A DNA stretch of 64,000 nt, taken from the sequence record NC_052663.1; one strand, given 5' to 3'. Origin of the DNA: Escherichia phage VEcB. This document shows, piece by piece, positions 22,714 through 51,350 of the stretch. The position numbers and the translations under genes are program-made. The notes under the pieces are model-generated. The model saw only the letters and a program-made list of their open reading frames with translations. It was not told the origin of the DNA and searched no databases. Positions within the stretch are counted from its first letter, which is position 1, and every line of letters starts with the position of its first letter.

Positions 22714-23310
22714 TTACTCGAACCAATCGTCGCCAGCGCCAAACGCTTTAACTACATCATAAATGTCAAGTCCAGCTTTACCTACACCATATGCTTTCAG
22801 TTTCCATTCGCTATCTTCCCGTACCAGGGAGGCAACGTGGCAAATGGTATTACCTGCAAGTTCTGGAGCCAAGAAGTCAAAATCCAGCAGTTCAACGTTA
22901 CGTTCATCATCGAAGATTTTAAGGAAACCTTCGGTAGCGTGACCAAGGCGTTTCTTACCCGTTTCGTCATCAATAGTGATTACGAATGCAATTTCCTGTG
23001 CTTCAGCAGAGATATTACCCAGTGTAACATCAATCTGCTCCATCTGTCCTACACCATCACGAACATCTTCACCTGCAAAAGTAGAACGTTCAGGATCAAA
23101 TTTCTGTGCGTAGCATACCAGGTGGCGAGGAGACAACAGTTCCGGCAGACCAGATGCATTGTGTCGGCAAATCAGAGCACTAACATCCAGATCCAGTTTT
23201 TCGTTAGATTTCCAAGAGAATTCCAGACGAATGCGTTTCAGTGCTGGTGCAATCTTTTTCAGAGAAACTTTTTCGCTAGAACCTTTTTTCAGGGAAATTT
23301 TCTGAGTCAT
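22714..23310 (-). CDS. TerD-family protein
   Basis: Colinear similarity to E. coli TerD: KISLKKGSSEKVSLKK (cf. VSLSKGGNVSLSK), DLDVSALIC (cf. DLDASAFLL), EIAFVITIDD (cf. KIIFVVTIHD), SEWKLKAYGVGKAGL (cf. GEWKFRAVGQGYAGG). Confidence 0.8.
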   Translation of the reverse strand: MTQKISLKKGSSEKVSLKKIAPALKRIRLEFSWKSNEKLDLDVSALICRHNASGLPELLSPRHLVCYAQKFDPERSTFAGEDVRDGVGQMEQIDVTLGNISAEAQEIAFVITIDDETGKKRLGHATEGFLKIFDDERNVELLDFDFLAPELAGNTICHVASLVREDSEWKLKAYGVGKAGLDIYDVVKAFGAGDDWFE

Positions 23311-23382: not shown

Positions 23383-24177
23383 TTACGCTTTTGCTCCGAA
23401 TTTTTTAACCCACTCGCCAAACTCTTCGGATAGCAGTTTATCGTAAAGTTCTTCGTCAGACAAGGACAAATCTGCAATACCGATAAAGTCAACGTTATCG
23501 TATTCTTTTGCCAAGTCTTTCAGGAATTTAAAGTTTGCATTACCTACACCAACCATAAACCAGTAAACAGGAGTGTTGCGGTGTTTGTTCAGCAAACTAC
23601 GTACTGCTGAAGTATCCATGTTCTCCCCGTCAGTTTGGAAGAAAATCATTGCAGGAGTACGATCAACTTGTGCATCAGTATCTACAACCTGTTCTACAAC
23701 AGTACGTGTAACTTCTACAAGTTCTTTTTTACCAGTCAGTTTAGCAAGGAAACCCTTAGCCGGAACTTCTTCATACTCAACGACTTCGCGTGTAATATTT
23801 TTCATAGGTACACTACCGAAGTATGTATCATAGATCTCTTGCATTACTGGAGCATAAGCTGTACCACCATTGATGCAAATGTTAGACATGCAAGAGCCGA
23901 CATAATCATCATATACATCAGCCGTTGCAGGAGGCAGTTCAAAAGAAGAACTATTGAAAGCCCACATGTCAATCTGTGCATTATCATCAAACTTCATACC
24001 AAACGGCAGCAGTTTACCTACAAAATCACTAACAGTGCCATCACGATATAGCTCACACATACTACCCGAAATATCTAAGGCGCTACCGACACGAAGAACA
24101 ACATCGTTAATCTTTTTCTTACGCAGAGATACAGTAAGAGTTTCTTGACGTTTTTTAAGACTGATTTTATTGGACAT
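23383..24177 (-). CDS. von Willebrand factor A domain protein (TerY/TerF-like) with short TerD-like N-terminal motif
   Basis: MIDAS motif DISGSM; N-terminus KISLKK...VSLRKK; adjacent to TerD. Confidence 0.6.
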   Translation of the reverse strand: MSNKISLKKRQETLTVSLRKKKINDVVLRVGSALDISGSMCELYRDGTVSDFVGKLLPFGMKFDDNAQIDMWAFNSSSFELPPATADVYDDYVGSCMSNICINGGTAYAPVMQEIYDTYFGSVPMKNITREVVEYEEVPAKGFLAKLTGKKELVEVTRTVVEQVVDTDAQVDRTPAMIFFQTDGENMDTSAVRSLLNKHRNTPVYWFMVGVGNANFKFLKDLAKEYDNVDFIGIADLSLSDEELYDKLLSEEFGEWVKKFGAKA

Positions 24178-25204: not shown

Positions 25205-25437
25205 TACACATTCTCCTCTTTTACCAATTCCATCGTTGAATTGTCAAAACCATCTTTAGAAGAATAGGTATAGACAGAACGTAGTTCTCGCAGGACAGTG
25301 AATACATTAGGATCATCTAACCAAGCATCCTGGAGGAGAACATAACGATCTTCATTGTCATACTGAACAGCAATCATAGAACCAGACAGTTTGTAAATTT
25401 TAATATTCATAATATATTTCTCCTTAAAGTAGACCAC
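25204..25437 (-). CDS. Hypothetical small protein
   Basis: ORF track. Confidence 0.3.
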   Translation of the reverse strand: MVYFKEKYIMNIKIYKLSGSMIAVQYDNEDRYVLLQDAWLDDPNVFTVLRELRSVYTYSSKDGFDNSTMELVKEENV

Positions 25438-26527
25438 GTTTAACAGTTTGAATCATACCATCTTCAAGAGATTGCACTTCTTGAATGTAATCAATACGAG
25501 CAGCACGGGCTTCAGTGTTGATTCGGTTAGTTTCTTCCAACATTTTAACTAAGTTTTCTTGATCGCGACGTAATGTTTCAATATCCAATACTTGACGATT
25601 AGCAAGTTTTGTAGCTTCAATTTGGTTTTGTGCAGCCAGATCACTACCCATTGCAATAGCAGCATTAAATTCATTCAGTACATTGTTCTGTGTATCGGCT
25701 GCTTTCTTCTGGCGTAAACTTTCAATATACATAGAAAAGTTTGCAGAGTAAGCAGGAATAACATTATTCACAATATTACGGGCTGATCGCATCAAACTTG
25801 CAGATACTTTCTGCATACTTTGTACACGTGGCCCCATCTGAACACACAGTAAACGCAAGGCTTTCAGGTCTGCAATACGAATTTCAAGCAGATCCATAGT
25901 ATCACGAGTACGTTGACGCTCTTCTACTTCATTTTCAGGTAGTGTATTAAGGCGAACTTCTTCTTTTTCATAAGTAGCTGTTAGAAGCTCTATATCCCTG
26001 TTTAAGCTAAGAGCATATTTTGCAATAGCCTCCTCTAAACGTTGCAGATATCGTAAAGAATCTTCTTCTTTTTTCAAATCTGTTTGGAGTGTCTTTACCA
26101 AACCTTCAATACGGTTATTGATGGTGTCAAATTCTCCAAACAAATCTTCTTTCATACCTAAAACTTTCTTAACTAGTTTACCTAAACCTTTAGATTGTTT
26201 AATAGAGTTAGGATCAAGTTGCTTTGCTTGCTTAATAAGTGCAGTTAAACGTTCACTCATTTCATCTCCCTGAGATGAACGCTGGTGTTTAAGCACTTCA
26301 GCATTAAGGTTACGAAGAGTAAGTCCTGCATCAGCACCAACCTGTTCAATCTCTTCACGAGACATTGGAGGCAGCATTTGTACAGGGCGTGCAACAGCAG
26401 GGGCATATACAGGGCTTGCATCCATAGCACTTGGAGCAAACAAAGACTTACTTTTTTCTGTTGTTGCCGTGAATACACTCATTTCAGACGGTTTGCTTTT
26501 TACGGCACTGATAAAAGGACTGGACAT
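25424..26527 (-). CDS. TelA-like (toxic anion resistance family) protein, tentative
   Basis: 367 aa, predominantly alpha-helical/coiled-coil; size and position within a TerC/TerD/vWA cluster fit TelA; not verified by profile. Confidence 0.4.
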   Translation of the reverse strand: MSSPFISAVKSKPSEMSVFTATTEKSKSLFAPSAMDASPVYAPAVARPVQMLPPMSREEIEQVGADAGLTLRNLNAEVLKHQRSSQGDEMSERLTALIKQAKQLDPNSIKQSKGLGKLVKKVLGMKEDLFGEFDTINNRIEGLVKTLQTDLKKEEDSLRYLQRLEEAIAKYALSLNRDIELLTATYEKEEVRLNTLPENEVEERQRTRDTMDLLEIRIADLKALRLLCVQMGPRVQSMQKVSASLMRSARNIVNNVIPAYSANFSMYIESLRQKKAADTQNNVLNEFNAAIAMGSDLAAQNQIEATKLANRQVLDIETLRRDQENLVKMLEETNRINTEARAARIDYIQEVQSLEDGMIQTVKRGLL

Positions 26528-26595: not shown

Positions 26596-27447
26596 TTAAA
26601 CAAACATATCTAAATAATTTGTAGTAATAAATGCTCCATCTGCTTCCAGATTAACATAACCCGTGGTATTAGCAGTTAAGAAATCTAGATCGAAGGACTC
26701 TTTAACACCCCGTACCTCAACACGAGAGATATCGAATACAGGTAGTGTAACAGCCTCTTCGTGCAATACCGTACCTTTGTAGGTTGCCTTAATGATAAAC
26801 TTGATATTACCTGTTCCAGCATCATATAAAACACTTTCAAACCCTTTGAGAGTATATTTATCACCAGAAGTGAAGTGCAAAGTTGCTTTGTTTACAGTAC
26901 GTTTCTTACGAGGAGTTCCTTTCACACGTTTATGATCACTACGTTTTTTGTATTTAGGAATGAATACAAACGATACACTCTCAAGAAAGGTATCAACATC
27001 AAGGATTTTAATATCCTCTGTTGCAGCAAATTTTGAAGTCGTTGCATCAAAATGCTTTTCCCTGCGATCATACATAAAGATATCAAACCGATCTTCTAAA
27101 TCAAACAAATTATGTATTTTAATTTCAGAATGCTTGCGCATTGCAGCAACCTTGAACTCTTCAAAACGTGGGTGTTCTACAAGTTCTTCAAGTTTTACAC
27201 CAAAGACAGTATATGGCTTCGAAGTCTTTTCTGGTGTTGGCATTACAGAAGCATAGTCCCCGATTGCGCTCTTAAAGCAAAATTGTTCTTGACCTGTATT
27301 TTTACCAACGAATTTACAGTATTCATCATCGTGCATACTTTCCTTGGTAGTACCAACAAACTCAAAACCATCTTTATTCTTCTCAAGGATTTCTTGATTA
27401 AAGATCCAACCTTCCAGGCGATATACTTTACCAACTTCTAGTTTCAT
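26596..27447 (-). CDS. Hypothetical protein within the Ter-like cluster
   Basis: ORF track; GAAGGAG RBS. Confidence 0.4.
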   Translation of the reverse strand: MKLEVGKVYRLEGWIFNQEILEKNKDGFEFVGTTKESMHDDEYCKFVGKNTGQEQFCFKSAIGDYASVMPTPEKTSKPYTVFGVKLEELVEHPRFEEFKVAAMRKHSEIKIHNLFDLEDRFDIFMYDRREKHFDATTSKFAATEDIKILDVDTFLESVSFVFIPKYKKRSDHKRVKGTPRKKRTVNKATLHFTSGDKYTLKGFESVLYDAGTGNIKFIIKATYKGTVLHEEAVTLPVFDISRVEVRGVKESFDLDFLTANTTGYVNLEADGAFITTNYLDMFV

Positions 27448-27482: not shown

Positions 27483-28073
27483 TTAACGACGACGTGAGCT
27501 ACTAAAACTACGTTTCGACGAAGAATAACTTTTCGAAGACTTACTATAAGAACTAATAGGGCTTGAGTAAGACTTACGAGCAGAGTAATCACTATTCACT
27601 TTTGTTGTTGACGGGCGTGAATACGTTTGTACACTTTGCTGCTTAATTGTGTTTTGTTTAGTGGTTGTATATGTATTTCCTTGTTTATCATAAAAACTAT
27701 GCTTTTGTGTTGTATATGCTTTACTGTTAGTTGTAGGAGCAGCGTTGTTATTAATAATTGTTGTGCTGCTACCACCATCTCTATAACCGCCACCGCCACT
27801 ATTACCACTCAACATATGACCAAGAAGCATACCTGTAGCAAACTCACCTACACCAGAAGAACCACTGCCGCCTCCTTGCACAACAACTGTTGAAGGTTGT
27901 GCAGGTGCTGCTTGAACAACTTGAGGTGCAGGCTGATTTACATATTGTTCATCTACCATCTGATTTGGTGTTTGTTGGTAACGTTGATTTTGTACATTTT
28001 CAGAATCATCACAACCTACCAGCAATGCACTACCTAATACAACTGCAACAATAAAAGATTTAATGTTTTTCAT
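27483..28073 (-). CDS. Predicted lipoprotein with low-complexity Q/S/Y/G-rich body and basic Ser-rich tail
   Basis: Signal peptide plus lipobox (LLVGC); GGGSGSSG and SYSKSSKSYSSSKRSFSSSRRR tracts; start taken at internal Met MKNIKSF. Confidence 0.45.
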   Translation of the reverse strand: MKNIKSFIVAVVLGSALLVGCDDSENVQNQRYQQTPNQMVDEQYVNQPAPQVVQAAPAQPSTVVVQGGGSGSSGVGEFATGMLLGHMLSGNSGGGGYRDGGSSTTIINNNAAPTTNSKAYTTQKHSFYDKQGNTYTTTKQNTIKQQSVQTYSRPSTTKVNSDYSARKSYSSPISSYSKSSKSYSSSKRSFSSSRRR

Positions 28074-28269
28074 TTGTAACCCTCTCATTTAAAGTCTCAA
28101 CACAATTTTTAAAATCCCTAGAGAAACAATACATCTGTTCTCCGTTCCTGTTGATAGTAATTGTATGGTTATCAATATATGTTGTCAAGATAAAAATCAA
28201 ACAAAACAACCCTAGAGCAAAACAAATATTTTCAAACAGAATCCAAAGAACACGTAAAACCACCATCAG

Positions 28270-28300
28270 ATCACCTCAACAAAGCCCCCGAAGGGGCTTA
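28270..28300 (-). terminator. Terminator downstream of the TerC gene
   Basis: AGCCCC-CGAA-GGGGCT hairpin followed on the minus strand by TTTGTT. Confidence 0.5.
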
Positions 28301-28317
28301 ATGAATTAAGCAACAGT

Positions 28318-29283
28318 CTAGTCTTCTTTTTCAGGGAAGATTAAACTTGCAATAACACCCAGCCCAAGAGTACCTAACACAATATACATACTGATCGTCG
28401 GATCAATGTGTGCTGGCAGGAAACTCACTTTTGCGTGCAGAGTTTCTGCAAACGGGTGATACATCAGTTTTACACCCACAAATACCAGGACTACGATAAC
28501 TGCTTTCTCCAGATGAACCAAATACTTCAGTGCAACACTAAGAACAAAGAACAGAGCACGTAAACCTAAGATTGCACAGAGCATCGAAGAGAACACCAGC
28601 AGAGGTTCTTGTGTCACCGCAATTACCGCTGGAACAGAGTCTACTGCAAAGATTACGTCAACCATTTCCATTACAAACACACAAACCAGAGCCGGAGTTG
28701 CTACACGAACACCATTTTTGATTGTGAAGAACTTCTCACCATCCATCTGATCAGATACAGGGAACAGCTTACGAACAATGCGAGTAGCCCAGTGTTTAGA
28801 GTAATCAACTTCTGCATCATTATCCCCAGCGAATACCATTTTAGCCGCACAGAAAAGGATGACAGCACCGAAGAAGATATTAACATACCAGCCCAAACTC
28901 AACAAGTAAGTGCCTACTGCTACAAACACACCTCGGAAGACAATCGCACCTGCAATACCCCAAAGTAGAATTTTGTGCTGCAAGTGTGTGCTTTTAATAC
29001 CAAAACTTGCGAAGACTGCCACAAATACTACTAAGTTATCTACAGAAAGAGATTTCTCCAACACATACCCACTCAAGAACAAGCTCGCAAAATCAGCACC
29101 GTGTTGGAAGTATACAAAACCATAGTAGGCTAATGATACCCCAATCCAGAAAATTGACCAGCCAATTGCAGATTTAAATGAAATTTCTTTGTTTTCTCTG
29201 TGTCCAAAGAAGTCAATACAAATCGACAAGACTAAAATACCCACTAAAACAACCACATCAATAATTGGGAAACCCAGTTGCAT
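28318..29283 (-). CDS. TerC-family integral membrane protein
   Basis: Multiple TM helices; signature YVLEKSLSVDNLVVFV and second repeat DVIFAVDSVPAVIAV typical of TerC/Alx. Confidence 0.75.
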   Translation of the reverse strand: MQLGFPIIDVVVLVGILVLSICIDFFGHRENKEISFKSAIGWSIFWIGVSLAYYGFVYFQHGADFASLFLSGYVLEKSLSVDNLVVFVAVFASFGIKSTHLQHKILLWGIAGAIVFRGVFVAVGTYLLSLGWYVNIFFGAVILFCAAKMVFAGDNDAEVDYSKHWATRIVRKLFPVSDQMDGEKFFTIKNGVRVATPALVCVFVMEMVDVIFAVDSVPAVIAVTQEPLLVFSSMLCAILGLRALFFVLSVALKYLVHLEKAVIVVLVFVGVKLMYHPFAETLHAKVSFLPAHIDPTISMYIVLGTLGLGVIASLIFPEKED

Positions 29284-29360
29284 TCTTTTCTCCTCTTTAA
29301 TGCGGAGGACAATCCTCCGCTCTATGTCTTATACTATAAACTGTTTTTAAAGAAAGTCAA

Positions 29361-29609
29361 CTAGTTCAGTTCTGTAATTTTAAGTTTATCTTCTTTGTTA
29401 ATGATAGGGAAAGCTACAGCATCACCTACGTCATCAATAAAGCAAATAGCAAGACCACCTTCCACTTTGCTAATCTGACCATTAAAGGCGTGATACGGGG
29501 CAGGAACTTGATCTCCATCTTCAAGGAGAATAGCCTCGTAAACCTTGCCGATAGTACAATCACGAGTGTTTTTAAATTTTTCAAGCACTTCAACATTTAC
29601 TTTACGCAT
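29361..29609 (-). CDS. Hypothetical small protein
   Basis: ORF track. Confidence 0.3.
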   Translation of the reverse strand: MRKVNVEVLEKFKNTRDCTIGKVYEAILLEDGDQVPAPYHAFNGQISKVEGGLAICFIDDVGDAVAFPIINKEDKLKITELN

Positions 29610-29623
29610 ATAAAGATCCTCTC

Positions 29624-29830
29624 TTATTTGTTAGATTGAAAGATACCACGAAGTACCGCAAGAATGAACGTCACACAGACTACACTCCAAAACGTTACAG
29701 GAACATGATGCCAGTCTAAACCGATAATGTCAATCATATAGTTGTATGCTAAAAGCAGTAGCCAACTAGGGATTAACACAATCAAGAACACAACAATAAA
29801 ACAACCTAATACTGCTAAAACACCTGCCAT
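29624..29830 (-). CDS. Small membrane protein (two hydrophobic helices)
   Basis: ORF track; hydrophobic composition. Confidence 0.35.
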   Translation of the reverse strand: MAGVLAVLGCFIVVFLIVLIPSWLLLLAYNYMIDIIGLDWHHVPVTFWSVVCVTFILAVLRGIFQSNK

Positions 29831-29839
29831 ACTTTCTCC

Positions 29840-30556
29840 TTATTTCAGTTTGTAAACAATTACATTTAAACCTTTGTTCACTAGAGTTTCTTCGATCATA
29901 AGTTTTACAATATTCCAAGAACCTCCAGCCAAACCACAACCAAGCATTGGTAAACCTACAATTTTACCGCCTGAAGATACAACATCGTCTCCCATACTAT
30001 CTAACGCATTGTAGATAGCTTCATAATTCAGGTCACGCTTACCTTCCTCACGACGACTATAACCATATTGTCCATATAAATTATAAATTGTCAAATTGTT
30101 TTCTGCATACTTAGTAAACGTACCTAATTTTTTATAATCACCACGTTTAGTGGCACAATCTGCTTTAAACGCACCAGGCCACTTGCTTTTAATTTTTGGT
30201 GCAATACCACTACCCATAGTGCAAAAACAGTTACAGCAGTGTGCTATAGCGTCTATATCGCCTCTCTCGGCTGCTGCTAAAAGATCACCGTACACCTCAA
30301 TGATACCTGCTGGATAACTTGTTACAATTTCATCTTCCCAGTACATTTTCTCTACACCACCGATCAGTGCAAAGTTTTGTGTAATACGATCATCAATGTA
30401 ATTAAGACCTGAGACATACACAGCGTATTCATCACGTGCTGTGATACCTTGTACACGAATTCTTAAGACACCATCTTTATCTGTTGCTACACGCCCAAAA
30501 TCTTTTTCTGTAATATTGGTGATAGGATCTCCGAAAGTCATTACTTTATTAGACAT
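29840..30556 (-). CDS. Macro-domain-like protein (putative ADP-ribose binding/processing)
   Basis: DAIAHCCNCFCTMGSGIA aligns in pattern with the macro motif (AIVNAAN..LLGGGGVDGAI); second glycine-rich motif GLPMLGCGLAGGSW; ATG overlaps the PRTase stop (AGGGGA RBS). Confidence 0.4.
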   Translation of the reverse strand: MSNKVMTFGDPITNITEKDFGRVATDKDGVLRIRVQGITARDEYAVYVSGLNYIDDRITQNFALIGGVEKMYWEDEIVTSYPAGIIEVYGDLLAAAERGDIDAIAHCCNCFCTMGSGIAPKIKSKWPGAFKADCATKRGDYKKLGTFTKYAENNLTIYNLYGQYGYSRREEGKRDLNYEAIYNALDSMGDDVVSSGGKIVGLPMLGCGLAGGSWNIVKLMIEETLVNKGLNVIVYKLK

Positions 30557-31406
30557 AATAATCCCCTTTAACATTAGGTTTGTTGATAATGTTGCTTTCA
30601 AAAAATTGACGTAGGAAATCAAAGTTCTCTTTGTATTTTTCAATGTTATTGTAACCTTCTGCAAGGCAACCAAAGAACAGTTGTTCTACATAATACAAAG
30701 GAAGTTGTGAAAGTGCAATTTTAAAGTCAACTTCGCTTTGACTCATTAGATACTTAATAGGACGAACCAAACATTTAGCATCAGCTTCTTGCTTAATCAT
30801 TTTAATAAAAGCTGCCAGATTATTGATATAGTTGAAGTTAAGTGCAGCTTCGGTGTTGGCTTCTGTACCTTCATACTTTGCAAAGTACAGGAAAAACGTA
30901 TTGTTTTCAACACCTTCTTTGTCTAAAATTTCAATAAGTTTTTCTTCGTGTGTACCTGTAATATTAACATCATCAATGAAAATCAGATTTTTATCGCCCC
31001 AAAAATCACGATTGATAGAGAAAGTATCACCATCGATCAAAGCCTTACGATCTTCTTTGCTAAGAAATCCATAATCATTGATATAGCTTACTTTACGATG
31101 AACGATATCCCACTCTACTGCTTTACCTCCTTTGATAGAGATTAGGTAGTTGAGGTGATCTACAAAATGTTCAGATAACACTGTAGCTGCATTTTTAACA
31201 TAGTTATACGGAGATGGAATAACAACAGAACTTTCATTTACCAGTCGTTCTTCATATTTAGAAAAGAAACTTTCAGCCAGAATGCGTCCCATTCTTTTTG
31301 CTGCCTGGTTACTACCAAACTTTAGTTTGGAATAATCTGCAATGTTAAATTTTGCTTCCTTCAGGTTAGTAAAAGTATTAGCAAAATGTTGAATTTGATT
31401 ACGCAT
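30549..31406 (-). CDS. Phosphoribosyltransferase-like (PRTase) protein
   Basis: PRPP-binding-type motif NLIFIDDVNITGTHEEKL; 8-nt overlaps with both neighbouring genes. Confidence 0.55.
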   Translation of the reverse strand: MRNQIQHFANTFTNLKEAKFNIADYSKLKFGSNQAAKRMGRILAESFFSKYEERLVNESSVVIPSPYNYVKNAATVLSEHFVDHLNYLISIKGGKAVEWDIVHRKVSYINDYGFLSKEDRKALIDGDTFSINRDFWGDKNLIFIDDVNITGTHEEKLIEILDKEGVENNTFFLYFAKYEGTEANTEAALNFNYINNLAAFIKMIKQEADAKCLVRPIKYLMSQSEVDFKIALSQLPLYYVEQLFFGCLAEGYNNIEKYKENFDFLRQFFESNIINKPNVKGDYYV

Positions 31407-32055
31407 TAATAAGTTCCTCTTTTTTAAGTTTAGCCAACAAGTCTTCTGGATTAATAATATGACAGAACTTCATCCCTATGTCAACAGCTTTTCCATCATA
31501 AATCAAACTATCTCCAACGTGTAAAATCTCCTCTGGTGCGAGATCAAACGTCACCATTTCATCAAAAGAGAGTTTAAAAAACCTAGGATCTGGTTTACAC
31601 AAGCAAAACTCGTCAGAAAAATGCATAAAGTCGAATGGTAATTTTGTTAAGCCAGAATATACAGCTAAGAAACTACCTGGTACAAAATTAGTATTGCTCT
31701 TAATACTCAAAGAGTAGGTTGAACTTAACTCTTCCAACTTCTTGCAAAGTTCAGGATTCAATGTTGGAGGATGTTTTATAAACATTGCTAAACAGTCTCT
31801 TTTTAACCCATCCACTTTATCAAGATCAATGTTCAAACGAGTAGAAAGTGTTACCCAAGCATCCTTAGACGTTCCACAAATGCCTTTTTCTGCTTTTAAA
31901 TCCAAGAGAGTTTTTACCTCTTTATATACGGTAGCTGCTTCTACCTCAGAACAAGAGGCATACTCGGCAATAACCTTGTTGCGCTCTTCTGCATACAAAG
32001 GGTTAGCAGTAATAAGAGTATTCCATACATCAAAAGAAATATGCTTAACAGTCAT
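31399..32055 (-). CDS. HAD-superfamily hydrolase (phosphatase/dehalogenase-like)
   Basis: Motif I ISFDVWNTL, KPDPR, motif IV HVGDSLIYDG; start set at Met with GGAGG RBS. Confidence 0.6.
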   Translation of the reverse strand: MTVKHISFDVWNTLITANPLYAEERNKVIAEYASCSEVEAATVYKEVKTLLDLKAEKGICGTSKDAWVTLSTRLNIDLDKVDGLKRDCLAMFIKHPPTLNPELCKKLEELSSTYSLSIKSNTNFVPGSFLAVYSGLTKLPFDFMHFSDEFCLCKPDPRFFKLSFDEMVTFDLAPEEILHVGDSLIYDGKAVDIGMKFCHIINPEDLLAKLKKEELINA

Positions 32056-32225
32056 TTTTAATCCTCCGTCCAAAAGAATATCATCTGCTTAATTTTATTG
32101 ATCTCTTGATGTAGTAACTTTCCAGCATGTGATTGATCTTTAATATTGACAGCAAGAATTTCAAGCTCCGTTAGTTTTTCCTGGATAGCTTTATATTCAT
32201 CATCTGTAAGCATTTTCTTCCCCCT

Positions 32226-32429
32226 TTAGAATGGTAATCTTTGTATGTCACTTATCCCCACACCAAGAAGTCTAGCAATATCCTTATCTAAAAGCAACTC
32301 TTTTTGTTCTAAAATGTTAATCAGATCTCCTAATACTTCTTTAATGTCACGATCATTTTTAGCAACGTGACCACCTGCCGTATCAACTTTATCTTTAAAA
32401 ACAAAGTAATGATCCATAATACCCTCCAT
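32226..32429 (-). CDS. Hypothetical small protein
   Basis: ORF track. Confidence 0.3.
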   Translation of the reverse strand: MEGIMDHYFVFKDKVDTAGGHVAKNDRDIKEVLGDLINILEQKELLLDKDIARLLGVGISDIQRLPF

Positions 32430-32435
32430 ATAAAT

Positions 32436-32458
32436 AAAGGAGGCTTTCGCCTCCTTTT
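32436..32458. terminator. Hairpin terminator between the ATPase paralog A gene and 32226..32429
   Basis: GGAGGC-TTTC-GCCTCC hairpin with T-rich flanks. Confidence 0.45.
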
Positions 32459-32463
32459 ATCAC

Positions 32464-33624
32464 TTAGTAAGAACGACCACCAAACACATACTCTGTGTAG
32501 TTTTTACGTTCTTTGTTTTTAATAACAACTTCAATGTTGTTACCTTTATCATCGGTGAACACAAAGTGATAACCGTCACCACCCATTGTACGGATGTGTT
32601 TTTCATCATACGTCAGCAAGATACGGTCTACACCCCAGTAGTAGTCACCTTCTTCATCTTTGTCTTCTACTGTAACGACCCCTTCCATTTCAGGAAGATG
32701 TTCTTCTCCTAGCTTATGGTCTACAGCTACAACATAACGATTACCGCTAAACAAACCCTGTGCTGTCATACCGTCAATATCGGTATCTGCCGAAACATCT
32801 CCTGTACGATCTACACCGTTGACTTTCAGAAGTTTAACTTCTTTTGCAGCATAGCGGTGTTCAGTAATACTGATACCCATTAATGCAAGTGCATCAGAGA
32901 ATTTGTCATTAGGGTAACGGTTAAGTTCTTCTACTAATGACTGAACAATATCAAAGTTCAAGTCCACGGACAGATTATAAAGCGTTTCAAAATCTGGTAA
33001 AAAGGCTTTGTTCTCCAGATTTTTAGCCAGATAATCATCCATAGTAGCTTTAGGTAGTTTCTTATAGCTAAAACTGTAGAAAATACGGCTAGGACGATTA
33101 CGCAAAAATTCTGATACATAACCATCATTTTTAGTCAATACAAACAGCTTGTCATAACCACCAACACCATCCAGCAGGGTAAGCAAACCATCTTGTGCAT
33201 CTTTTTCAGCATACAGTTTATCAAATTCATCGATCATAATCATCACAGGTTGTGTGATTTTAGACATAAAGTTGATAAAGCCTTCACCATTAAAAGCACT
33301 ACCGATAGAAATAGTAGGAATACCCATTTCACGAAGAGCAGAAGACAGCATTTTAGCTTGCAAAGTTTTACCGCTACCTTTCGTACCCTCAAGGAGAACA
33401 CCTGTGTTTTTACCTTTGCGGCTAAGGAACGTCTTGATAATACGTTCTGATTTATCATCAGTATCACCGTATGTTACTGAAGGGACTTCCATATCGTTTT
33501 TAGGATACAGGAAGAACTCGCCACTTTGAGTAACACCTACACCAAAAGTTCCTGCTGGAATTTCTTCAATATCTGTACCAGACTTCTGACGCAGGAAGAT
33601 TTGATTGCCGAATACTGTAAACAT
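32464..33624 (-). CDS. P-loop NTPase (AAA-like), paralog A
   Basis: Walker A GTKGSGKT, Walker B MIMIDEFDK; colinear paralog of 49159..50286 on the + strand. Confidence 0.55.
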   Translation of the reverse strand: MFTVFGNQIFLRQKSGTDIEEIPAGTFGVGVTQSGEFFLYPKNDMEVPSVTYGDTDDKSERIIKTFLSRKGKNTGVLLEGTKGSGKTLQAKMLSSALREMGIPTISIGSAFNGEGFINFMSKITQPVMIMIDEFDKLYAEKDAQDGLLTLLDGVGGYDKLFVLTKNDGYVSEFLRNRPSRIFYSFSYKKLPKATMDDYLAKNLENKAFLPDFETLYNLSVDLNFDIVQSLVEELNRYPNDKFSDALALMGISITEHRYAAKEVKLLKVNGVDRTGDVSADTDIDGMTAQGLFSGNRYVVAVDHKLGEEHLPEMEGVVTVEDKDEEGDYYWGVDRILLTYDEKHIRTMGGDGYHFVFTDDKGNNIEVVIKNKERKNYTEYVFGGRSY

Positions 33625-33644
33625 AGTTTTCTCCTCTATTTAAT

Positions 33645-34115
33645 TTAGTCAGATTCCCAAATGTTGTCTTTCTTAACCCACATTCGTTGATTATCTGAAC
33701 CTCTATAACGTTTCGTTGTTGGTTGAGTCATATCATACTTACCATCTATTACTATGTCAACCAGTTTTTTAATTTTCTCTGGAATTTCTTCAAAAAGATA
33801 TCCTGTATATAAGACAATATCTTTTTTGTTTCCAAAACAATCTCTTACCTTCTCAAGAACATACTCTACAGTGTCAATGTTCTCTTTGTCAAGAGGTTCA
33901 CCACCTAAAACTGTTAATCCTTTAATGAAAGGTCGAGATAAATCTTCCAAGATAAGATCTAATGTTTCAGTAGTGAACTCTTGTCCGTAGTTATACGACC
34001 AGGCTTTCTGGTTGAAGCAGCCACGGCAACCGTGGCTACAACCGCTCACCCACAAAGAGCATCTTACACCGTCACCGTTGAGCATGTCAACAGGTTCATA
34101 TCCGGCGTAATTCAA
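33645..34115 (-). CDS. nrdG: Anaerobic ribonucleotide reductase activating protein (radical SAM)
   Basis: Cys cluster CSHGCRGC near N-terminus; 156 aa; directly downstream of nrdD; TTG start with RBS. Confidence 0.65.
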   Translation of the reverse strand: MNYAGYEPVDMLNGDGVRCSLWVSGCSHGCRGCFNQKAWSYNYGQEFTTETLDLILEDLSRPFIKGLTVLGGEPLDKENIDTVEYVLEKVRDCFGNKKDIVLYTGYLFEEIPEKIKKLVDIVIDGKYDMTQPTTKRYRGSDNQRMWVKKDNIWESD

Positions 34116-35050
34116 AAATGTTTCTCCCTTTCTAATACTTCTTGCATTTTACCTTTATTATAAGGGCGAGAGTTAGGGGCAGAAAGGTATCCTGACACTC
34201 TTCTGATCACAGATATGGATTCTTCTTCATGATTACCGCAACTTGGACACTCGAAGCCTTTAGCCGTTGCTTTAAATTCACCATGAAAACCACATTTGAA
34301 ACACTGATCTACAGGTTGGTTCACGCCAAAATAAGGAATTTTGTTGTAGGCATAATCTACAAGAGTTTCCAGTGCTTGCAAGTTATTTTTAAGGTTTGGT
34401 GTTTCTACATAACCTATGTTCCCACCATTACTAATTTGTGCAAAACCTTCCTCATAATCCCACTTTTGGAACGGGGTAGTGTGCATCCACACAGGTTGAT
34501 GGAAAGAGTTTGTCAAGTAGTCACGATCAATAGAACCAGGATAGCGATCATTTAATGCTTTGGCAAATTTATAGCACAAGGATTCTGCTGGTGTTCCATA
34601 CAAACTAAAAGCTAAACCAGAACGTTCTTTAAATGTGCCACAGATATCCTTCATATATTGAAGGATGTTTTTACCCATTGCTTTTGGATTGGTGTTACCT
34701 GGGTATAAAATCTCCATAGCTTCTGCTAAACCTACATAACCGATACTAATAGAGGCATAACCACCTTCGAATAGTTTACCAATCTCTTCATTAGCTTCTA
34801 GTCGAGCTAAAGCCCCTTCCATAAACAATGTAGGGTTTTGAGATGCTTTGGTATGTCTAATACGGTTAACACGTAGCATATGTGCCTTATACGCCATCTC
34901 CATATGTTGTTCCAACAGTTCAGTAAATAAGATGCCCTTTTCACGGGACTCTGCTGCAATGATAGGTAAGTTTAAAGAAACTACGCCTAAGTTGAAACGA
35001 CCATCATATTTTTCACCTTGCTCTGTTGCATAGTATGACAAGAAACTTCT
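34112..35050 (-). CDS. nrdD: Anaerobic ribonucleoside-triphosphate reductase, 3' exon (C-terminal half); upstream boundary is the intron 3' splice site, not mapped
   Basis: C-terminal Zn ribbon CFKCG...CPSCG and glycyl-radical motif RRVSGYL; the first residues of the track ORF are intron sequence. Confidence 0.7.
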   Translation of the reverse strand, partial: RSFLSYYATEQGEKYDGRFNLGVVSLNLPIIAAESREKGILFTELLEQHMEMAYKAHMLRVNRIRHTKASQNPTLFMEGALARLEANEEIGKLFEGGYASISIGYVGLAEAMEILYPGNTNPKAMGKNILQYMKDICGTFKERSGLAFSLYGTPAESLCYKFAKALNDRYPGSIDRDYLTNSFHQPVWMHTTPFQKWDYEEGFAQISNGGNIGYVETPNLKNNLQALETLVDYAYNKIPYFGVNQPVDQCFKCGFHGEFKATAKGFECPSCGNHEEESISVIRRVSGYLSAPNSRPYNKGKMQEVLEREKHF

Positions 35051-35083
35051 ACACATTATGTTCAAAGTGGCTCGCAAGGCCAC

Positions 35084-35814
35084 TCCCGCACCATTACGTG
35101 CTGCTGCATGTCACCATGCAGATCAGACTATATCTTCATGCTTAAAGCATGTCTACCATTTGGGGTGTCATAGGCTTACACCCTACGCTGCTACATTCAT
35201 CACAGCTAGTCGTTAGGCATTTCGTAACAGAACTCATAATCATAATTATTTGGTGCTCCGCGCTTTAAGATTGCAGATATTCTTTTTCTGTCCAACCCTA
35301 AAGCGTCAGCACAACATCTCAGACTTTTAAAGTAAAAAACTTCACCAGTAGCCTTATGAGTAGCTTTTACACTGTGACACCTTGTGTAGAAAGCATAACA
35401 GTTATTATCGTAACCCTCTTGCGTGTTGTCTGGACAAGATCCCCACTCAAGATTGTATACACTGTTGTCTTTCCTATTGTCACCTTTATGCTTCACATAA
35501 GGTAAATTGTCTGGATTGGGTAAAAACGCTTCAGCTACAAGTCTGTGCACCCGAAAGCAAACAGTTTTCTTGTTTTTACGTATTCTGACAAGTTGGTATC
35601 CTGTGTTTATTTCTTCCCACGAGCGAAGGATTCTTTCATCCTTATACCTGGTACAATAAACATTTCCAAGCTCGTCAATTTCATACCCTTCAAAATCACG
35701 AATTTGTTTTCTCATATCAGTACCCCCCTTCTTCTGTGTTGGGAGTTCTGTTACGTTTAGCACGGGATTGTCTCGTTGAGAGTTCCCCCGTTTAGGCAGA
35801 TTTTACATGAGCAG
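35084..35814 (-). mobile_element. Group I self-splicing intron interrupting nrdD, carrying an HNH endonuclease ORF
   Basis: nrdD is split into two same-strand ORFs; intervening RNA (minus strand) begins ...CUGCCUAAACGGGGGAACUCUCAACGAGACAAUCCCGUGCUAAACG, closely resembling the conserved core of T4-type group I introns; boundaries approximate. Confidence 0.6.
35206..35715 (-). CDS. Intron-encoded HNH homing endonuclease
   Basis: HNH-type motif HRLVAEAFLPNP...HKGDNRKDNSVYNLEWGS; start at internal ATG with AAGGGGGG RBS; lies within the nrdD intron. Confidence 0.6.
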   Translation of the reverse strand: MRKQIRDFEGYEIDELGNVYCTRYKDERILRSWEEINTGYQLVRIRKNKKTVCFRVHRLVAEAFLPNPDNLPYVKHKGDNRKDNSVYNLEWGSCPDNTQEGYDNNCYAFYTRCHSVKATHKATGEVFYFKSLRCCADALGLDRKRISAILKRGAPNNYDYEFCYEMPND

Positions 35815-36681
35815 TTATAGTTTACCCATGCTTGTGACGCGACCATCTGAAGATCCTGTAACTTCTTTGTTTAAAGGTACAGAGATAAAATCAGGATAAA
35901 TGCGTTCAGCACAACACTCCATTGCCAGTTGCTTCAAATCATAATTTGGATCGCCAGCTTTCATGTTAACACCATCTTCCAAGAAGAAGATAACTTTAGG
36001 AAACACAGGAGTTACCCTATCTTTTCCTAATCCTTGTTTGTGCACCATTAGGTAGTTTTTAGTGATCATTCTACCAAAAGCAGAGGTATCCAAACCTAAA
36101 CTAATTGTTATAAAAGGTGACTGACCATTTACACTCATTAGGGTGTTCACCTGGTAGATTAAAGTTTGCATTGCATCATAGACCTGTTTATCTACCATAC
36201 GCATAGCAATATCATAATCGCCAACATCGGCATATATTTTATTAAAACTTGCTTTAACGTATTGACTAAGCCCAGTATCAACATGTGCACAAGTTTGTCC
36301 ACCATATTGGCTAGAAGCTACTGCTTGAATAATTTGAGTTAGGACAGTAGTTGCTACACCAATAGATTTTGGTTTTTCAATATGTGCATTACCAATACGG
36401 AAACCGTTCTCAAGCATATCTTGGTAATTTACCAGGCAACAATTAGTTAAAGGTGAGAGTAAATAATCTAAATCGTGGATGTGACCATACCCACTTTTAT
36501 GCCATTCTGCTAAATCTTCAGGCAAAATATGGGTCATTGCCATGTGCTTGCTTAGGATACCTGCTAGTAAATCTCGGTGAGTATTAACAATCATTGCAGG
36601 TTTGTTTGCATTTTCACGAGTAAATTCTTCGGATGTTTGTTCGAGGAATCCGATTACATCCTCATATAGTTTTTGGGTCAT
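35815..36681 (-). CDS. nrdD: Anaerobic ribonucleoside-triphosphate reductase, 5' exon (N-terminal half); true exon end is the 5' splice site a little upstream of the in-frame stop
   Basis: Start at ATG with GGAGG RBS (MTQKLYEDV...); exon 1 plus exon 2 total about 600 aa. Confidence 0.65.
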   Translation of the reverse strand: MTQKLYEDVIGFLEQTSEEFTRENANKPAMIVNTHRDLLAGILSKHMAMTHILPEDLAEWHKSGYGHIHDLDYLLSPLTNCCLVNYQDMLENGFRIGNAHIEKPKSIGVATTVLTQIIQAVASSQYGGQTCAHVDTGLSQYVKASFNKIYADVGDYDIAMRMVDKQVYDAMQTLIYQVNTLMSVNGQSPFITISLGLDTSAFGRMITKNYLMVHKQGLGKDRVTPVFPKVIFFLEDGVNMKAGDPNYDLKQLAMECCAERIYPDFISVPLNKEVTGSSDGRVTSMGKL

Positions 36682-36699
36682 TAATCCTCCGTGGAAAAT

Positions 36700-36724
36700 A
36701 AAAGCCAGCATTAAGCTGGCTTTA
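36700..36724 (-). terminator. Terminator upstream of nrdD
   Basis: GCCAGC-ATTAA-GCTGGC hairpin followed on the minus strand by TTTTATTTT. Confidence 0.5.
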
Positions 36725-36770
36725 GGGTGGATCTTTATTTTAAATCTTTTTCGTAAGATTGTCCTTGATC

Positions 36771-37721
36771 TTAGTCAAGGTTTTTGGTAATACGTGTACA
36801 ACCGTCAGAAGTCAAACCGTCAACTTGAGTTTCCCAAGTGCCATGAATATTTCGGAACAATGTTGTTACACCTTTTGGTTCATTAATAATGATTGCCATA
36901 ACAAGTTTAGGATCGATAACAGACATAATCTTTTCCTCAATACCCTCTGTAATAACATTATTACGCACAATATTAATTACATCTTCTTGTACAGTAAGAG
37001 TGCTTACGTTCTTAAGAGTATATACCTGCTGCGTAGTGTAAATGATACGAACATAGCTTACAGAACGAGTAGGCACAGGTTTACGCGGTCGGCGAAAACG
37101 TGGTTTTGGTGAAGATTCAGTCTTACTTTCATTTTTTGAATAATACTCCTCAAACAGTTTAGTAAATGTTTTTACATCAACTACAAACCGATCTTTCCTA
37201 TATGGAGAATACTTATGTGCACCATTAATTCCACTGTTTTCATCAAAGAAAGTAATATTTTCTTCAGTTGAATATGTTAGATAATGGTCTGCATCTTTCC
37301 AATGTGGTTGTGGACAATGCGGATTACAAACGGAAAGCAGATAACTAATATCTTCTTCCGTTGCACTAGTATCCAGGAAACATGTATTATGCACAGACAG
37401 TTCTACTTTTTCAACCATATCCTTTTCTTTATCCTCTTTGGCAAGATACTCAGTACGAATAATATCCAGAAAATCTTTAGGTGTTACTTCCATAAATGTA
37501 TATTCAGGGTGAAGTTCCATATATTCAAATCCACAACCATCTAATTGCTGTAGGAAGTTAGGATAGAAGAACAAGTCATTAACACTATGAATCAGATCAT
37601 TGATTTCTGCTTCAGATGTGTAACCAAAACTCTTGTGAATTGCTTCATTAAGAATATGCAGGATACCCATCTCTTCTGCTGCTTTTTTAACTTCCAGTTT
37701 ATTAGCGTAAAATGCAATCAT
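36771..37721 (-). CDS. Hypothetical protein
   Basis: ORF track; AAGGAG RBS. Confidence 0.4.
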   Translation of the reverse strand: MIAFYANKLEVKKAAEEMGILHILNEAIHKSFGYTSEAEINDLIHSVNDLFFYPNFLQQLDGCGFEYMELHPEYTFMEVTPKDFLDIIRTEYLAKEDKEKDMVEKVELSVHNTCFLDTSATEEDISYLLSVCNPHCPQPHWKDADHYLTYSTEENITFFDENSGINGAHKYSPYRKDRFVVDVKTFTKLFEEYYSKNESKTESSPKPRFRRPRKPVPTRSVSYVRIIYTTQQVYTLKNVSTLTVQEDVINIVRNNVITEGIEEKIMSVIDPKLVMAIIINEPKGVTTLFRNIHGTWETQVDGLTSDGCTRITKNLD

Positions 37722-49158: not shown

Positions 49159-50286
49159 ATGAAATACACGATTTATGGTGATATTGTAAGTGTAAATAAA
49201 GATATGGGCGTGGAATCTAACTATCTTCCACCTGGATTCTATACTGTTAGTCGTGATCCCCTTGGCAATTATTTTTTAAGCCGTGGTAATCTGACAGGTG
49301 TACCGGATGTTCTGTATGGTGAAACAGAAAAACGAGCAAATCACGTTATTCGTACATTCCATCGCCGGAGTGCACAAGGTAAAAATACAGGCTTGCTTCT
49401 GACAGGAACTAAGGGCAGTGGTAAAACTATGTTAGCCAAACTCATTAGTCGTGACCTTGTAGAAGAAGGTATTCCAACTATTATGGTTACTCAAGCCTAC
49501 AGCGATGCTAATTTCATTGAACTTATTAGCAAGATCACCGACAAAGCAGTGATTATTTTTGACGAGTTTGATAAAGTATATGAGAAGAAACAAGATCAAG
49601 AAGCACTTCTCACTTTGTTAGATGGTACTGGCAGTGGTAATAAACTGTTTATTCTGACTAAAAACAGTGGTTTTATCTCTGAATTCTTTTTAAATCGTCC
49701 TAGTCGTGTGTTTTATAATTTTAATTATGATAAAATCTCACTAGAAACTATGATTGACTATTTAGATAAAAACCTGGATAACAAAGCACACTTTGATAAT
49801 TTCCAAAGACTTTGGGATGTAAGTTTAGAGTTGTCCTTTGATGTGATCCAAGGTATAGTAGAAGAACTTAATTTCTACCCTGATTTGTCCTTTAAAGAAT
49901 GCATCTCTATGATGGGCGTTTCTTTGGGTGGTGGTAATAAATGGGATATCAGCAGCGTTGTTATTAATGGGAAACTTCAGAAAGTTAGCTGGGTATCTAG
50001 TTGGCATAACTTTACACCTGCAATCTTTTTAGGTGGTTCGTGCACACTAGACGTGTATTTGTCATCTCCAAGTGATGCAGACTCTAAAGAAGCCCTTGCT
50101 AATAGCTCTTACGTGGTTTTTGATGATGAAGGCGATGCTCGAATTCCATTGAATGCGACAAAAATGAAAGCAGATCTTATCACAGGCGGTAAAATCGTTG
50201 TGTTTAGTGATGATCCAGAAGATTCTTTCCGTATTGTTCTGGAACCAACTATCACCAATGGTGCAACTTTGGCAAGTGTGTTTTAA
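49159..50286 (+). CDS. P-loop NTPase (AAA-like), paralog B
   Basis: Walker A GTKGSGKT, Walker B IIFDEFDK; colinear with 32464..33624; hairpin terminator downstream. Confidence 0.55.
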   Translation: MKYTIYGDIVSVNKDMGVESNYLPPGFYTVSRDPLGNYFLSRGNLTGVPDVLYGETEKRANHVIRTFHRRSAQGKNTGLLLTGTKGSGKTMLAKLISRDLVEEGIPTIMVTQAYSDANFIELISKITDKAVIIFDEFDKVYEKKQDQEALLTLLDGTGSGNKLFILTKNSGFISEFFLNRPSRVFYNFNYDKISLETMIDYLDKNLDNKAHFDNFQRLWDVSLELSFDVIQGIVEELNFYPDLSFKECISMMGVSLGGGNKWDISSVVINGKLQKVSWVSSWHNFTPAIFLGGSCTLDVYLSSPSDADSKEALANSSYVVFDDEGDARIPLNATKMKADLITGGKIVVFSDDPEDSFRIVLEPTITNGATLASVF

Positions 50287-50360: not shown

Positions 50361-51350
50361 ATGGCAGCACCAAAATCATGGGAACAATATAAAGAAGAGT
50401 GTATACCAATAGCAGAGAGTAAGCAAATCCAAATCTTAGGATGGACGGGACAATGGAAAGGGGTCCACACAAAACTTGATTTGTTGTGCCATTGTGGTTA
50501 TAAATGGGATACTACAAGTATTAACAGTTTTAAATGTGGTAGCGGTTGTCCACAATGTAGGAGGAAGAATATAAGGAAGTCACAAACAATGTCCGACGAT
50601 CAACATATTGCAGATTTCTTTTCTACAGGGGAATTTAAGGAAGGCACTATCTTCACTAACACAGGAACACGGGGTAAAGGATGTAGGAATATTATCTGGA
50701 TGGTTGAATGTCCTGTTTGCTCTCATGATGAATATGTTCAAGCAGGTGTTTGTGATGGTAAATTTTACTCTGAAGGAGATAACCTTAAACGAGGGTATAT
50801 TCCGTGTCGTTGTGGGAACTATCGGTATACAGAAGACCAGATCACCTATAGGGTAAAAAAGGAAGTAGAAGGGAAAGGGTATGTCTGGGTAGATTGGATT
50901 ACCAAACCCTCTTCTATAGGTAAGTTTAAATATCTTTGTCTTGTGCATGGTGAGCAGATAGGGAGTGCTCATAATTTATTAAGCCTCGGTCGAGGTTGTC
51001 CTATGTGTGCTGGTCATAGTCAGCAGCAGTTATATATTAATATTGTTAAGGATGATAATATTATAGTTGCTCTTAAGTTTGGTATAGCTAAAGATAGTGA
51101 TAGACGATTAAAAATTCAAAATAGCCGTAATATGTTTCCTATGGAGCGTATTTGTTTATATGATTTTAGCACAGTAAAACAATGTAAGGCTGCTGAAAGA
51201 GCTATAAAGAAAAAATTAAAAACTGGTATTTTAACGGAAAGAGAGTTGAAAGACGGTTATACAGAAACAGTAAGTGTTTCTGATTTGGAAAATCTTCAAA
51301 AAATTATTACACAATATGGTGGCAAATTAGTATACAGTAAGGAGATGTAA
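50361..51350 (+). CDS. Zinc-ribbon-rich protein, possibly nuclease/homing-endonuclease-like
   Basis: Several CxxC pairs (CGSGCPQC, CPVCSHDE, CPMC); RBS AAGAGGAG. Confidence 0.3.
   Translation: MAAPKSWEQYKEECIPIAESKQIQILGWTGQWKGVHTKLDLLCHCGYKWDTTSINSFKCGSGCPQCRRKNIRKSQTMSDDQHIADFFSTGEFKEGTIFTNTGTRGKGCRNIIWMVECPVCSHDEYVQAGVCDGKFYSEGDNLKRGYIPCRCGNYRYTEDQITYRVKKEVEGKGYVWVDWITKPSSIGKFKYLCLVHGEQIGSAHNLLSLGRGCPMCAGHSQQQLYINIVKDDNIIVALKFGIAKDSDRRLKIQNSRNMFPMERICLYDFSTVKQCKAAERAIKKKLKTGILTERELKDGYTETVSVSDLENLQKIITQYGGKLVYSKEM

Follow-up and report, generated by a model that had tools for sequence, protein, structure and literature searches.

An open reading frame (ORF) on the minus strand of Escherichia phage VEcB, at positions 29840-30556 of a 64,000-nucleotide stretch of record NC_052663.1 that is called the window here, encodes a protein of which residues 84-238 are assigned with confidence to the macrodomain fold on the strength of profile matches and a predicted structure. 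The protein is tentatively proposed to be a counter-defence ADP-ribose hydrolase, with a substrate most likely similar to that of Adpp, a phosphatase of Vibrio phage Gary that acts on ADP-ribose-1''-phosphate (ADPR-1''P). We infer this substrate from sequence identity, tree placement and gene context. The ORF and its parts are as follows.

29840-30556, minus strand: whole macro ORF, 238 amino acids; equivalent to Phi92_gp185 and 98% identical to bas60_0070 of Bas60
30308-30556, minus strand: N-terminal domain, residues 1-83; rare, small and beta-rich
29843-30307, minus strand: macrodomain, residues 84-238, predicted ALC1/TARG1-like class, from Pfam, AlphaFold2, Foldseek and residue equivalences
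30562-30569, minus strand: Shine-Dalgarno-like AAAGGGGA, 6 nucleotides before the ATG at 30556 and within the 3' end of the adjoining phosphoribosyltransferase (PRTase) gene; read directly

The ORF is real. It runs from an ATG at 30556-30554 to a TAA at 29842-29840 (238 codons plus the stop), and the window shares 98-99% identity with Escherichia phage phi92 and with some 50 further genomes of Justusliebigvirus. The phi92 record annotates Phi92_gp185 as 'phosphatase; Tk.4-like', while bas60_0070 of the BASEL phage Bas60 is already labelled 'putative macrodomain protein' in GenBank, so that the macrodomain assignment predates the present analysis. The start codon overlaps the stop codon of the PRTase gene by 8 nucleotides (ATGTCTAA), and the phi92 annotation also places a ribosome-binding site upstream of this ATG at the AAAGGGGA site. 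An alternative ATG at 30574, six codons upstream (30557-30574, minus strand), is used in some GenBank annotations and in a 244-amino-acid metagenomic cluster representative; the ATG at 30556 was preferred because of its Shine-Dalgarno spacing. An Rfam scan of positions 28000-37000 found no RNA element, and promoter and terminator scans gave nothing above the shuffled expectation. The hairpins at 32436-32457 and 29302-29320 were the only ones that matched terminators annotated in phage Paula.

Profile and sequence searches agreed on the identity of the C-terminal part, with matches far stronger than chance would give. The Pfam Macro family (PF01661) was matched over residues 106-217 with 30.9 bits against a cut-off of 22, and PHROG 335 (phrog_335, 'phosphatase') was matched with an E value of 3e-64. 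The NCBIfam DarG model, matched in its N-terminal macro portion, scored 48.8 bits, which is far under the equivalog cut-off, as expected for a match to the domain only. In phmmer searches of the PDB sequences the best matches were SCO6735 and BT1257 (E about 3e-15 to 4e-15), followed by TARG1 (E 3e-10) and then by DarG and Poa1p. Homologues at E<=1e-3 numbered 151, with E values from 1e-25 to 1e-156 among the matches listed. An AlphaFold2 model of the full-length protein, built on 58 homologues, had predicted local distance difference test (pLDDT) values of 84-99 across residues 84-238, with the macro core above 90. Comparison of the model by Foldseek gave a probability of 1.00 and TMt values of 0.78-0.90 to TARG1 (the top match, 0.90), BT1257, DarG (0.80) and SCO6735, and Poa1p was also matched.

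The first-pass annotation of this DNA had read the gene as macro-like from two glycine-rich motifs and had proposed structure prediction as a check. Both motifs are present, AIAHCCNCFCTMGSGIA as residues 103-119 and GLPMLGCGLAGGSW as residues 201-214, and the model and its Foldseek matches returned a macrodomain rather than an unrelated fold. Together with the Pfam match and the conserved residues of the ADP-ribose site, these results bear out the macro-domain reading.

In terms of the active site, the protein is of the SCO6735/BT1257 type (Gln, Asn and a phosphate-loop Gly) and lacks the catalytic lysine of the TARG1/DarG type. The position of that lysine (TARG1 Lys84, DarG Lys80) is occupied by Gln163 (codon 30068-30070), which aligns with SCO6735 Gln85; Asn109 (codon 30230-30232) aligns with Asn27, Gly208 with Gly128, His106 with His24, and Gly206 with a glycine that contacts the diphosphate. 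In SCO6735, mutation of Gln85 abolishes activity, mutation of the residues matching Asn109 and Gly208 lowers it, and mutation of His24 destabilised the fold. His106, Asn109, Gln163, Gly206, Gly208, Gly212 and Trp214 are the same residues in SCO6735 and T4-type Tk.4, and the loops HCCNCFCTMGSGIA and GCGLAGG have aligned counterparts in SCO6735, BT1257 and Tk.4. No variation was seen across the 58-sequence alignment at N109, G117, A119, K143, G145, N159, Y161, Q163, P203, G206, L209 and G212, and H106, G208 and G211 are nearly constant (at least 90%). Lys34 and Lys89 of SCO6735, which position DNA, are not conserved: they correspond to Ser116 and Ser167, the latter followed by Arg168 and Arg169. 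Judged by these residues, the macrodomain is predicted to be catalytically competent.

Save for its small extra N-terminal domain, the protein is an ordinary member of a very common phage macrodomain family. Of the 50,697 phage records searched by tblastn, 2,977 contained the family, and in only 61 of these did the match cover the N-terminal part; the fused gene (N-terminal domain plus macro) is carried by 53 records. Two roles of such proteins have been shown by experiment. Tk.4 of phage T4 was named AdfM because deletion of tk.4 sensitises T4 to DarTG2 (bioRxiv 10.1101/2025.11.20.689424), and the chimallivirus AdfM (PhiKZ gp104), which has a DarG-like lysine, strips DarT2 marks from DNA (PMC13309987). 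KNV71_gp137 of Vibrio phage Gary is Adpp, the ADPR-1''P phosphatase; encoded between Adps and Namat, it lets NARP1, an NAD+ pathway, overcome the RES-type NAD+ phosphorylase defence aRES (bioRxiv 10.64898/2026.01.28.702374).

Within this family the macrodomain of the ORF lies nearer to Adpp than to Tk.4. Its identity is 41% (114 bits) to the macro of Vibrio phage Athena, which is encoded in an Adps-macro-Namat operon and is 98.1% identical to Gary Adpp, and 45.5% to the macro of JG004, whose gene comes two genes after Namat and Adps. The identity to T4-type Tk.4 is 30% (64 bits, pairwise E 2.5e-17) and that to SCO6735 is 32%. In a neighbour-joining tree of 19 taxa with 100 bootstraps, the ORF was placed together with its Ter-linked relatives, GAP31, three metagenomic macros and Athena/JG004, with the T4-type clade outside, in 64 of 100 bootstraps. 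T4-type Tk.4 formed the sister clade, and no bootstrap grouped the ORF with it (0 of 100).

The gene context of relatives points in the same direction. Three independent metagenomic homologues (45-48% identical), which were picked blind to context, all lie in phage NAMPT/Nudix/NADAR/Prs islands, for example NUDIX-NAMPT-...-Macro-Macro-HAD_SAK_2 and NUDIX-YAcAr-NAMPT-NADAR-Macro-HAD_SAK_2-...-SIR2-Prs. The islands on metagenomic jumbo-phage-like contigs (L061, L063-L067) also include NT5C, and one has two tandem macros of different subtypes. A NARP1-like operon is found in the genus of the ORF itself: the complete, 98%-identical Justusliebigvirus genome OZ035770.1 (alia) has adjacent Adps-like (297 amino acids) and Namat-like (577 amino acids) genes at 140514-143212, and their products are 35% (E 4e-38) and 39% (E 8e-125) identical to the validated Bas63 gp79 and gp80. 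This genome has one macro ORF only. The Namat-like gene is at least 95% identical in 54 phage records, near the count of 53 with the fused macro. Bas63, where NARP1 was discovered, is a Felixounavirus and not phi92-like; NARP1 is therefore attributed to Justusliebigvirus by homology only.

In the proposed mechanism the macrodomain, which resembles those of ALC1, TARG1 and Poa1p, would bind the ADP-ribose moiety and cleave off by hydrolysis the group attached to C1'' of the distal ribose. The likeliest substrate would be ADPR-1''P, the product of RES-domain NAD+ phosphorylase defences (aRES), which the macro would convert to ADP-ribose as Adpp does. The NARP1-like Adps-Namat operon of the phage, about 83 kb away, may then rebuild NAD+ from the ADP-ribose, which would amount to a 'NARP1-AP' system with its parts in trans. 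Hydrolysis of thymidine-linked ADP-ribose on phage DNA modified by DarT2 would be only a little less plausible, and the enzyme may do both.

Several findings weigh against the Adpp-like proposal. The macro ORF of the alia genome, at 57.5-58.2 kb, lies about 83 kb from Adps and Namat and not within two genes of them, the context that defines Adpp. The closest solved homologue by sequence, SCO6735, is a thymidine-ADP-ribose (dT-ADPr) DNA hydrolase with the same Gln site, and T4 Tk.4 of the same family counters DarTG2. The bootstrap value for placement on the Adpp side is only 64%, in a neighbour-joining tree of 19 taxa. The synteny with the PRTase gene, a PRTase_3 family member, is kept within Stephanstirmvirinae, which is unexplained if PRTase_3 and the macro are functionally unrelated. 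The nearest solved structures, moreover, do not reveal the substrate of a protein of this family. For the Adpp orthologue (L054:3989-4465) the best matches are TARG1 and SCO6735, with Poa1p as weak as E about 1; the anti-DarT2 T4-type Tk.4 (L050:2486-2953) matches the ADPR-1''-phosphatase Poa1p at E 2e-6, above DarG. Ranking by PDB matches was for this reason rejected as a substrate discriminator. The net charge and isoelectric point (pI) of the macrodomains were also rejected, as they did not separate the Adpp-like from the AdfM-like group.

The chief alternative is an AdfM-type, anti-DarT2 role, in which the protein would take ADP-ribose off thymidine of phage single-stranded DNA and so complement the NADAR protein (AdfN), which acts on the guanine-linked ADP-ribose made by DarT1. 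This role is possible, if the less probable of the two. The requirement of T4 for its 30%-identical Tk.4 under DarTG2 and the clearing of DarT2 marks by chimallivirus AdfM argue for it, as does SCO6735, the best PDB sequence match, which hydrolyses dT-ADPr on DNA and rescues cells from DarT. DarG macrodomains are also among the top Foldseek matches, and the same genome has a NADAR gene 99% identical to that of AdfN^Bas60, NADAR and macro genes being adjacent in some phage islands. Against it stand the closer kinship of the ORF, in sequence and tree, to macros of the Adpp and NAMPT-island groups, the replacement of Lys34 and Lys89 of SCO6735 by serines (though Arg168 and Arg169 follow), and the acidic character of the full-length protein (pI 5.6). 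By sequence identity and tree, NAD+ islands and the NARP1-like operon in the genus, an Adpp-like role in trans was ranked slightly above the AdfM-like one. A broader ADP-ribosyl eraser, acting on Glu/Asp-linked ADP-ribose, RNA- or phosphate-linked ADP-ribose or O-acetyl-ADP-ribose, or else a non-catalytic ADP-ribose binder or sponge, is unlikely. TARG1 and SCO6735 do act on both protein and DNA substrates, members of the family are often annotated as O-acetyl-ADP-ribose deacetylase, and the substrate cannot be read from the nearest solved homologue; but the strict conservation of Gln, Asn and His in the site argues for catalysis over sequestration, and both of the experimentally studied phage members, AdfM and Adpp, have specific roles.

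The remaining alternatives concern the neighbouring genes, which are listed here.

30549-31406, minus strand: PRTase_3, a ComF-like phosphoribosyltransferase (PF15610, E 1e-40), whose stop overlaps the macro start
31399-32055, minus strand: HAD-family phosphatase, directly upstream of PRTase_3
28318-29283, minus strand: TerC, a Ter-type context gene
25424-26527, minus strand: TelA, a Ter-type context gene
23383-24177, minus strand: vWA-TerF-like, a Ter-type context gene
22714-23310, minus strand: TerD, a Ter-type context gene

The macro could be part of a HAD-PRTase_3-(MazG)-macro module of a phage Ter system, in which it would bind or trim a phosphoribosyl or ADP-ribose-like metabolite; this is improbable. 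The order HAD-PRTase_3-(N-domain-MazG-like protein)-macro, with its 8-nucleotide overlaps, is kept in phi92-like phages, in Phapecoctavirus and in metagenomic relatives, down to about 49% identity of the macro and 64% of the PRTase, and Phapecoctavirus EP57, which was fetched separately, has the same gene order. The Ter literature, as far as it is relayed in PMC7824862, predicts that the PRTase and HAD make a nucleoside-like signal. To place the pair more widely, 39 loci found with a PRTase profile in Rhizobium, Ensifer, Bacteroidales, Pedococcus and viral contigs were scanned with hidden Markov models and phmmer. The HAD-PRTase_3 pair was present in all 39, with HAD immediately before PRTase_3 in all but one, and TerD, TelA, TerF or TerC were often nearby. 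A macro adjoined the pair only where the PRTase was at least 64% identical, that is, in the phi92-related clade; in the 27 more distant loci none stood beside it, and one macro of another subtype, 6 kb away, was the only one within 10 kb. In the relatives the entire region from the AAA ATPase to TerD is syntenic, with the AAA ATPase, TerC, TelA, TerF and TerD kept as faithfully as the macro, and the adjacency therefore appears to be inherited gene order and not a specific association. Macros of 40-48% identity and other close homologues are found in unrelated surroundings: islands with NAMPT/Nudix/NADAR genes, operons of NARP1 and the tk region of T4. Least probable of all is a more elaborate version, in which the Stephanstirmvirinae gene order would mark an undescribed Ter-linked nucleotide pathway, with the macro handling an ADP-ribose-like or phosphoribosyl intermediate and the N-terminal domain docking the MazG-like or macro protein on a common partner; salvage of ADPR-1''P or ADP-ribose tied to the ComF-like PRTase may be an example.

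The same evidence bears on the view of the first-pass annotation that the macro is translationally coupled to the PRTase and HAD genes and may process a ribosylated metabolite that they make. The physical part holds, as the macro start overlaps the PRTase stop in the same way that the PRTase start overlaps the HAD stop. A functional coupling does not follow from it, since such overlaps are commonplace in this genome: of 60 pairs of adjacent same-strand genes in the corresponding region of a 98%-identical relative, 17 overlap (10 by 1-8 nucleotides) and 39 lie no more than 15 nucleotides apart. The overlap of macro and PRTase probably reflects compact phage gene packing and not a shared pathway. 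With the pair found apart from the macro in distant loci, and macro homologues found in other contexts, the suggestion of a PRTase/HAD metabolite was not upheld, and PRTase_3 is probably a neighbour of the macro and not its functional partner. The Ter-type genes are of note in their own right: between 22714 and 32055 (minus strand) the window carries a nearly complete Ter-type set plus HAD-PRTase_3 in one co-oriented block, and the 39 loci range across rhizobia, Bacteroidales and jumbo-phage contigs.

The N-terminal domain (residues 1-83) is poorly modelled in the full-length prediction, with pLDDT values of 31-53, and has as invariant residues D19, G21, R22, A24, G29, R32, F62, G67, M71, W73 and E74. 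It is 28% identical (E 2e-7) to the N-terminus of a 184-amino-acid protein that relatives encode between PRTase_3 and a 152-amino-acid macro, and the order PRTase_3-(N-domain-MazG-like)-macro recurs in a fourth, more distant example.

L005:7457-8011, L033:9424-10068, L035:4009-4587 and L071:603-1211: N-domain plus MazG-like protein, 184-214 amino acids, with an all-alpha MazG-like half

In the C-terminal half of the 184-amino-acid protein there is an ExxE...ExxD motif, and three orthologues match Pfam MazG below threshold (E 0.016-0.09). When the N-domain plus MazG-like protein was compared as a profile with the PDB sequences, no meaningful match came up. With the first 88 residues of the ORF protein as query, a word-indexed search for homologues found only two fragments of the same gene, and an exhaustive phmmer search of 1.8 billion representatives with the N-terminal part found six matches, of which three were informative. 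The MazG-like half appears to have been deleted in the lineage of the window, leaving the N-terminal domain, which probably forms a small beta-barrel adaptor. A 264-amino-acid metagenomic protein (P0245) has the same N-domain; it also matches the window ORF at 26596-27447 (minus strand; phi92 gp179) over a short local stretch, with 14 of 31 residues identical (E 6e-5).

The second ADP-ribose enzyme of the phage is encoded elsewhere in the window.

51351-51902, plus strand: NADAR gene (PF08719, E 6e-36), 99% identical to Bas60 bas60_0111

Bas60-62 are Justusliebigvirus phages, and AdfN^Bas60, a NADAR protein, neutralises DarT1 and rescues DarTG1-sensitive phages, and is not active against DarTG2. 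That bas60_0111 is the published AdfN^Bas60 is inferred from its YbiA-like/NADAR annotation and not from a locus tag. With this identity, and with the AdfM and Adpp roles of the macro family, the suggestion that the phage encodes two distinct ADP-ribose-removing activities is well supported, the NADAR being already validated. The NADAR gene starts right after the stop codon of a gene for a CapR-homology/T5orf172 protein (50361-51350). Paralogous AAA ATPases (47% identity over 254 amino acids) are encoded at 32464-33624 (minus strand), preceding the helix-turn-helix-gp188-HAD-PRTase-macro genes, and at 49159-50286 (plus strand), preceding CapR/T5orf172-NADAR. Their position a few genes upstream of both ADP-ribose hydrolase genes may be a coincidence or may reflect a shared regulatory or functional theme.

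Outside this subject, the nrdD gene for anaerobic ribonucleotide reductase (34112-36711, minus strand) is split into an N-terminal part at 35815-36711 and a C-terminal part at 34112-35056. The parts are separated by an ORF for an HNH/I-HmuI-like homing endonuclease (35206-35715). The phi92 record gives the product as spliced, but in the nrdD region none of the Rfam intron families attained its gathering threshold.

Taken alone, the gene is a re-identification of what is labelled a 'putative macrodomain protein' in Bas60. In Justusliebigvirus phages, however, a single macrodomain, most like Adpp, coexists with a NARP1-like operon and an anti-DarT1 NADAR protein. If the macro works for the NARP1 pathway in trans, resistance to RES-type NAD+ phosphorylase defences would be more frequent than the published figure of 15% of NARP1 phages, for which a macro gene had to lie no more than two genes from the operon. 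If the AdfM-type role is the true one, these phages would erase both guanine- and thymine-linked DNA ADP-ribosylation. Bas60 would be a tractable model in either case. More generally, the nearest solved homologue is no basis for assigning a substrate in this phage macro family, and where phage genomes are densely packed an overlap between genes of an operon says little about a common function.

Compared with known systems, the protein is closest in its site to SCO6735 (PDB 5E3B) and BT1257 (2FG1/2AFC), in which Gln likewise replaces the catalytic Lys of TARG1 and DarG and the GCGLAGG phosphate-binding loop is identical. The overall identity to these bacterial proteins is 31-32%, and they are basic (pI 8.7-9.7) and have no N-terminal domain. 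With TARG1/OARD1 (4J5S) and the DarG macrodomain (5M3E, 5M3I) it has in common the fold and the ADP-ribose pocket. In contrast to these, K84 of TARG1 and K80 of DarG give way to Gln163, Asp125 of TARG1 has no counterpart (alignment via SCO6735), and the DarT-binding C-terminal domain of DarG is absent. With regard to the Ter-associated HAD/PRTase module, for which a nucleoside-like metabolite or signal was predicted (Anantharaman, Iyer and Aravind 2012, as relayed in part via PMC7824862), the window likewise carries TerD, vWA-TerF, TelA, TerC and HAD-PRTase_3, whereas the macrodomain is not a conserved part of the module outside the phi92-related clade.

AdfM is a phage counter-defence macrodomain of about 150 amino acids, and its T4-type Tk.4 form has the same His, Asn, Gln and Gly-rich site residues as the ORF protein. 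The Tk.4 motifs TQF and IGAG have GQYG and LGCG as their counterparts, and PhiKZ AdfM differs in having a DarG-like catalytic Lys where the ORF protein has Gln. Gary Adpp lies within its NARP1 operon, whereas the ORF gene is about 83 kb away (as measured in the related genome), beside PRTase_3 and HAD, and carries an 83-residue N-terminal domain. Like the ORF protein, Adpp is a stand-alone phage macrodomain of the same family and on the same side of the tree, and a NARP1-like operon is present in the genus of the ORF.

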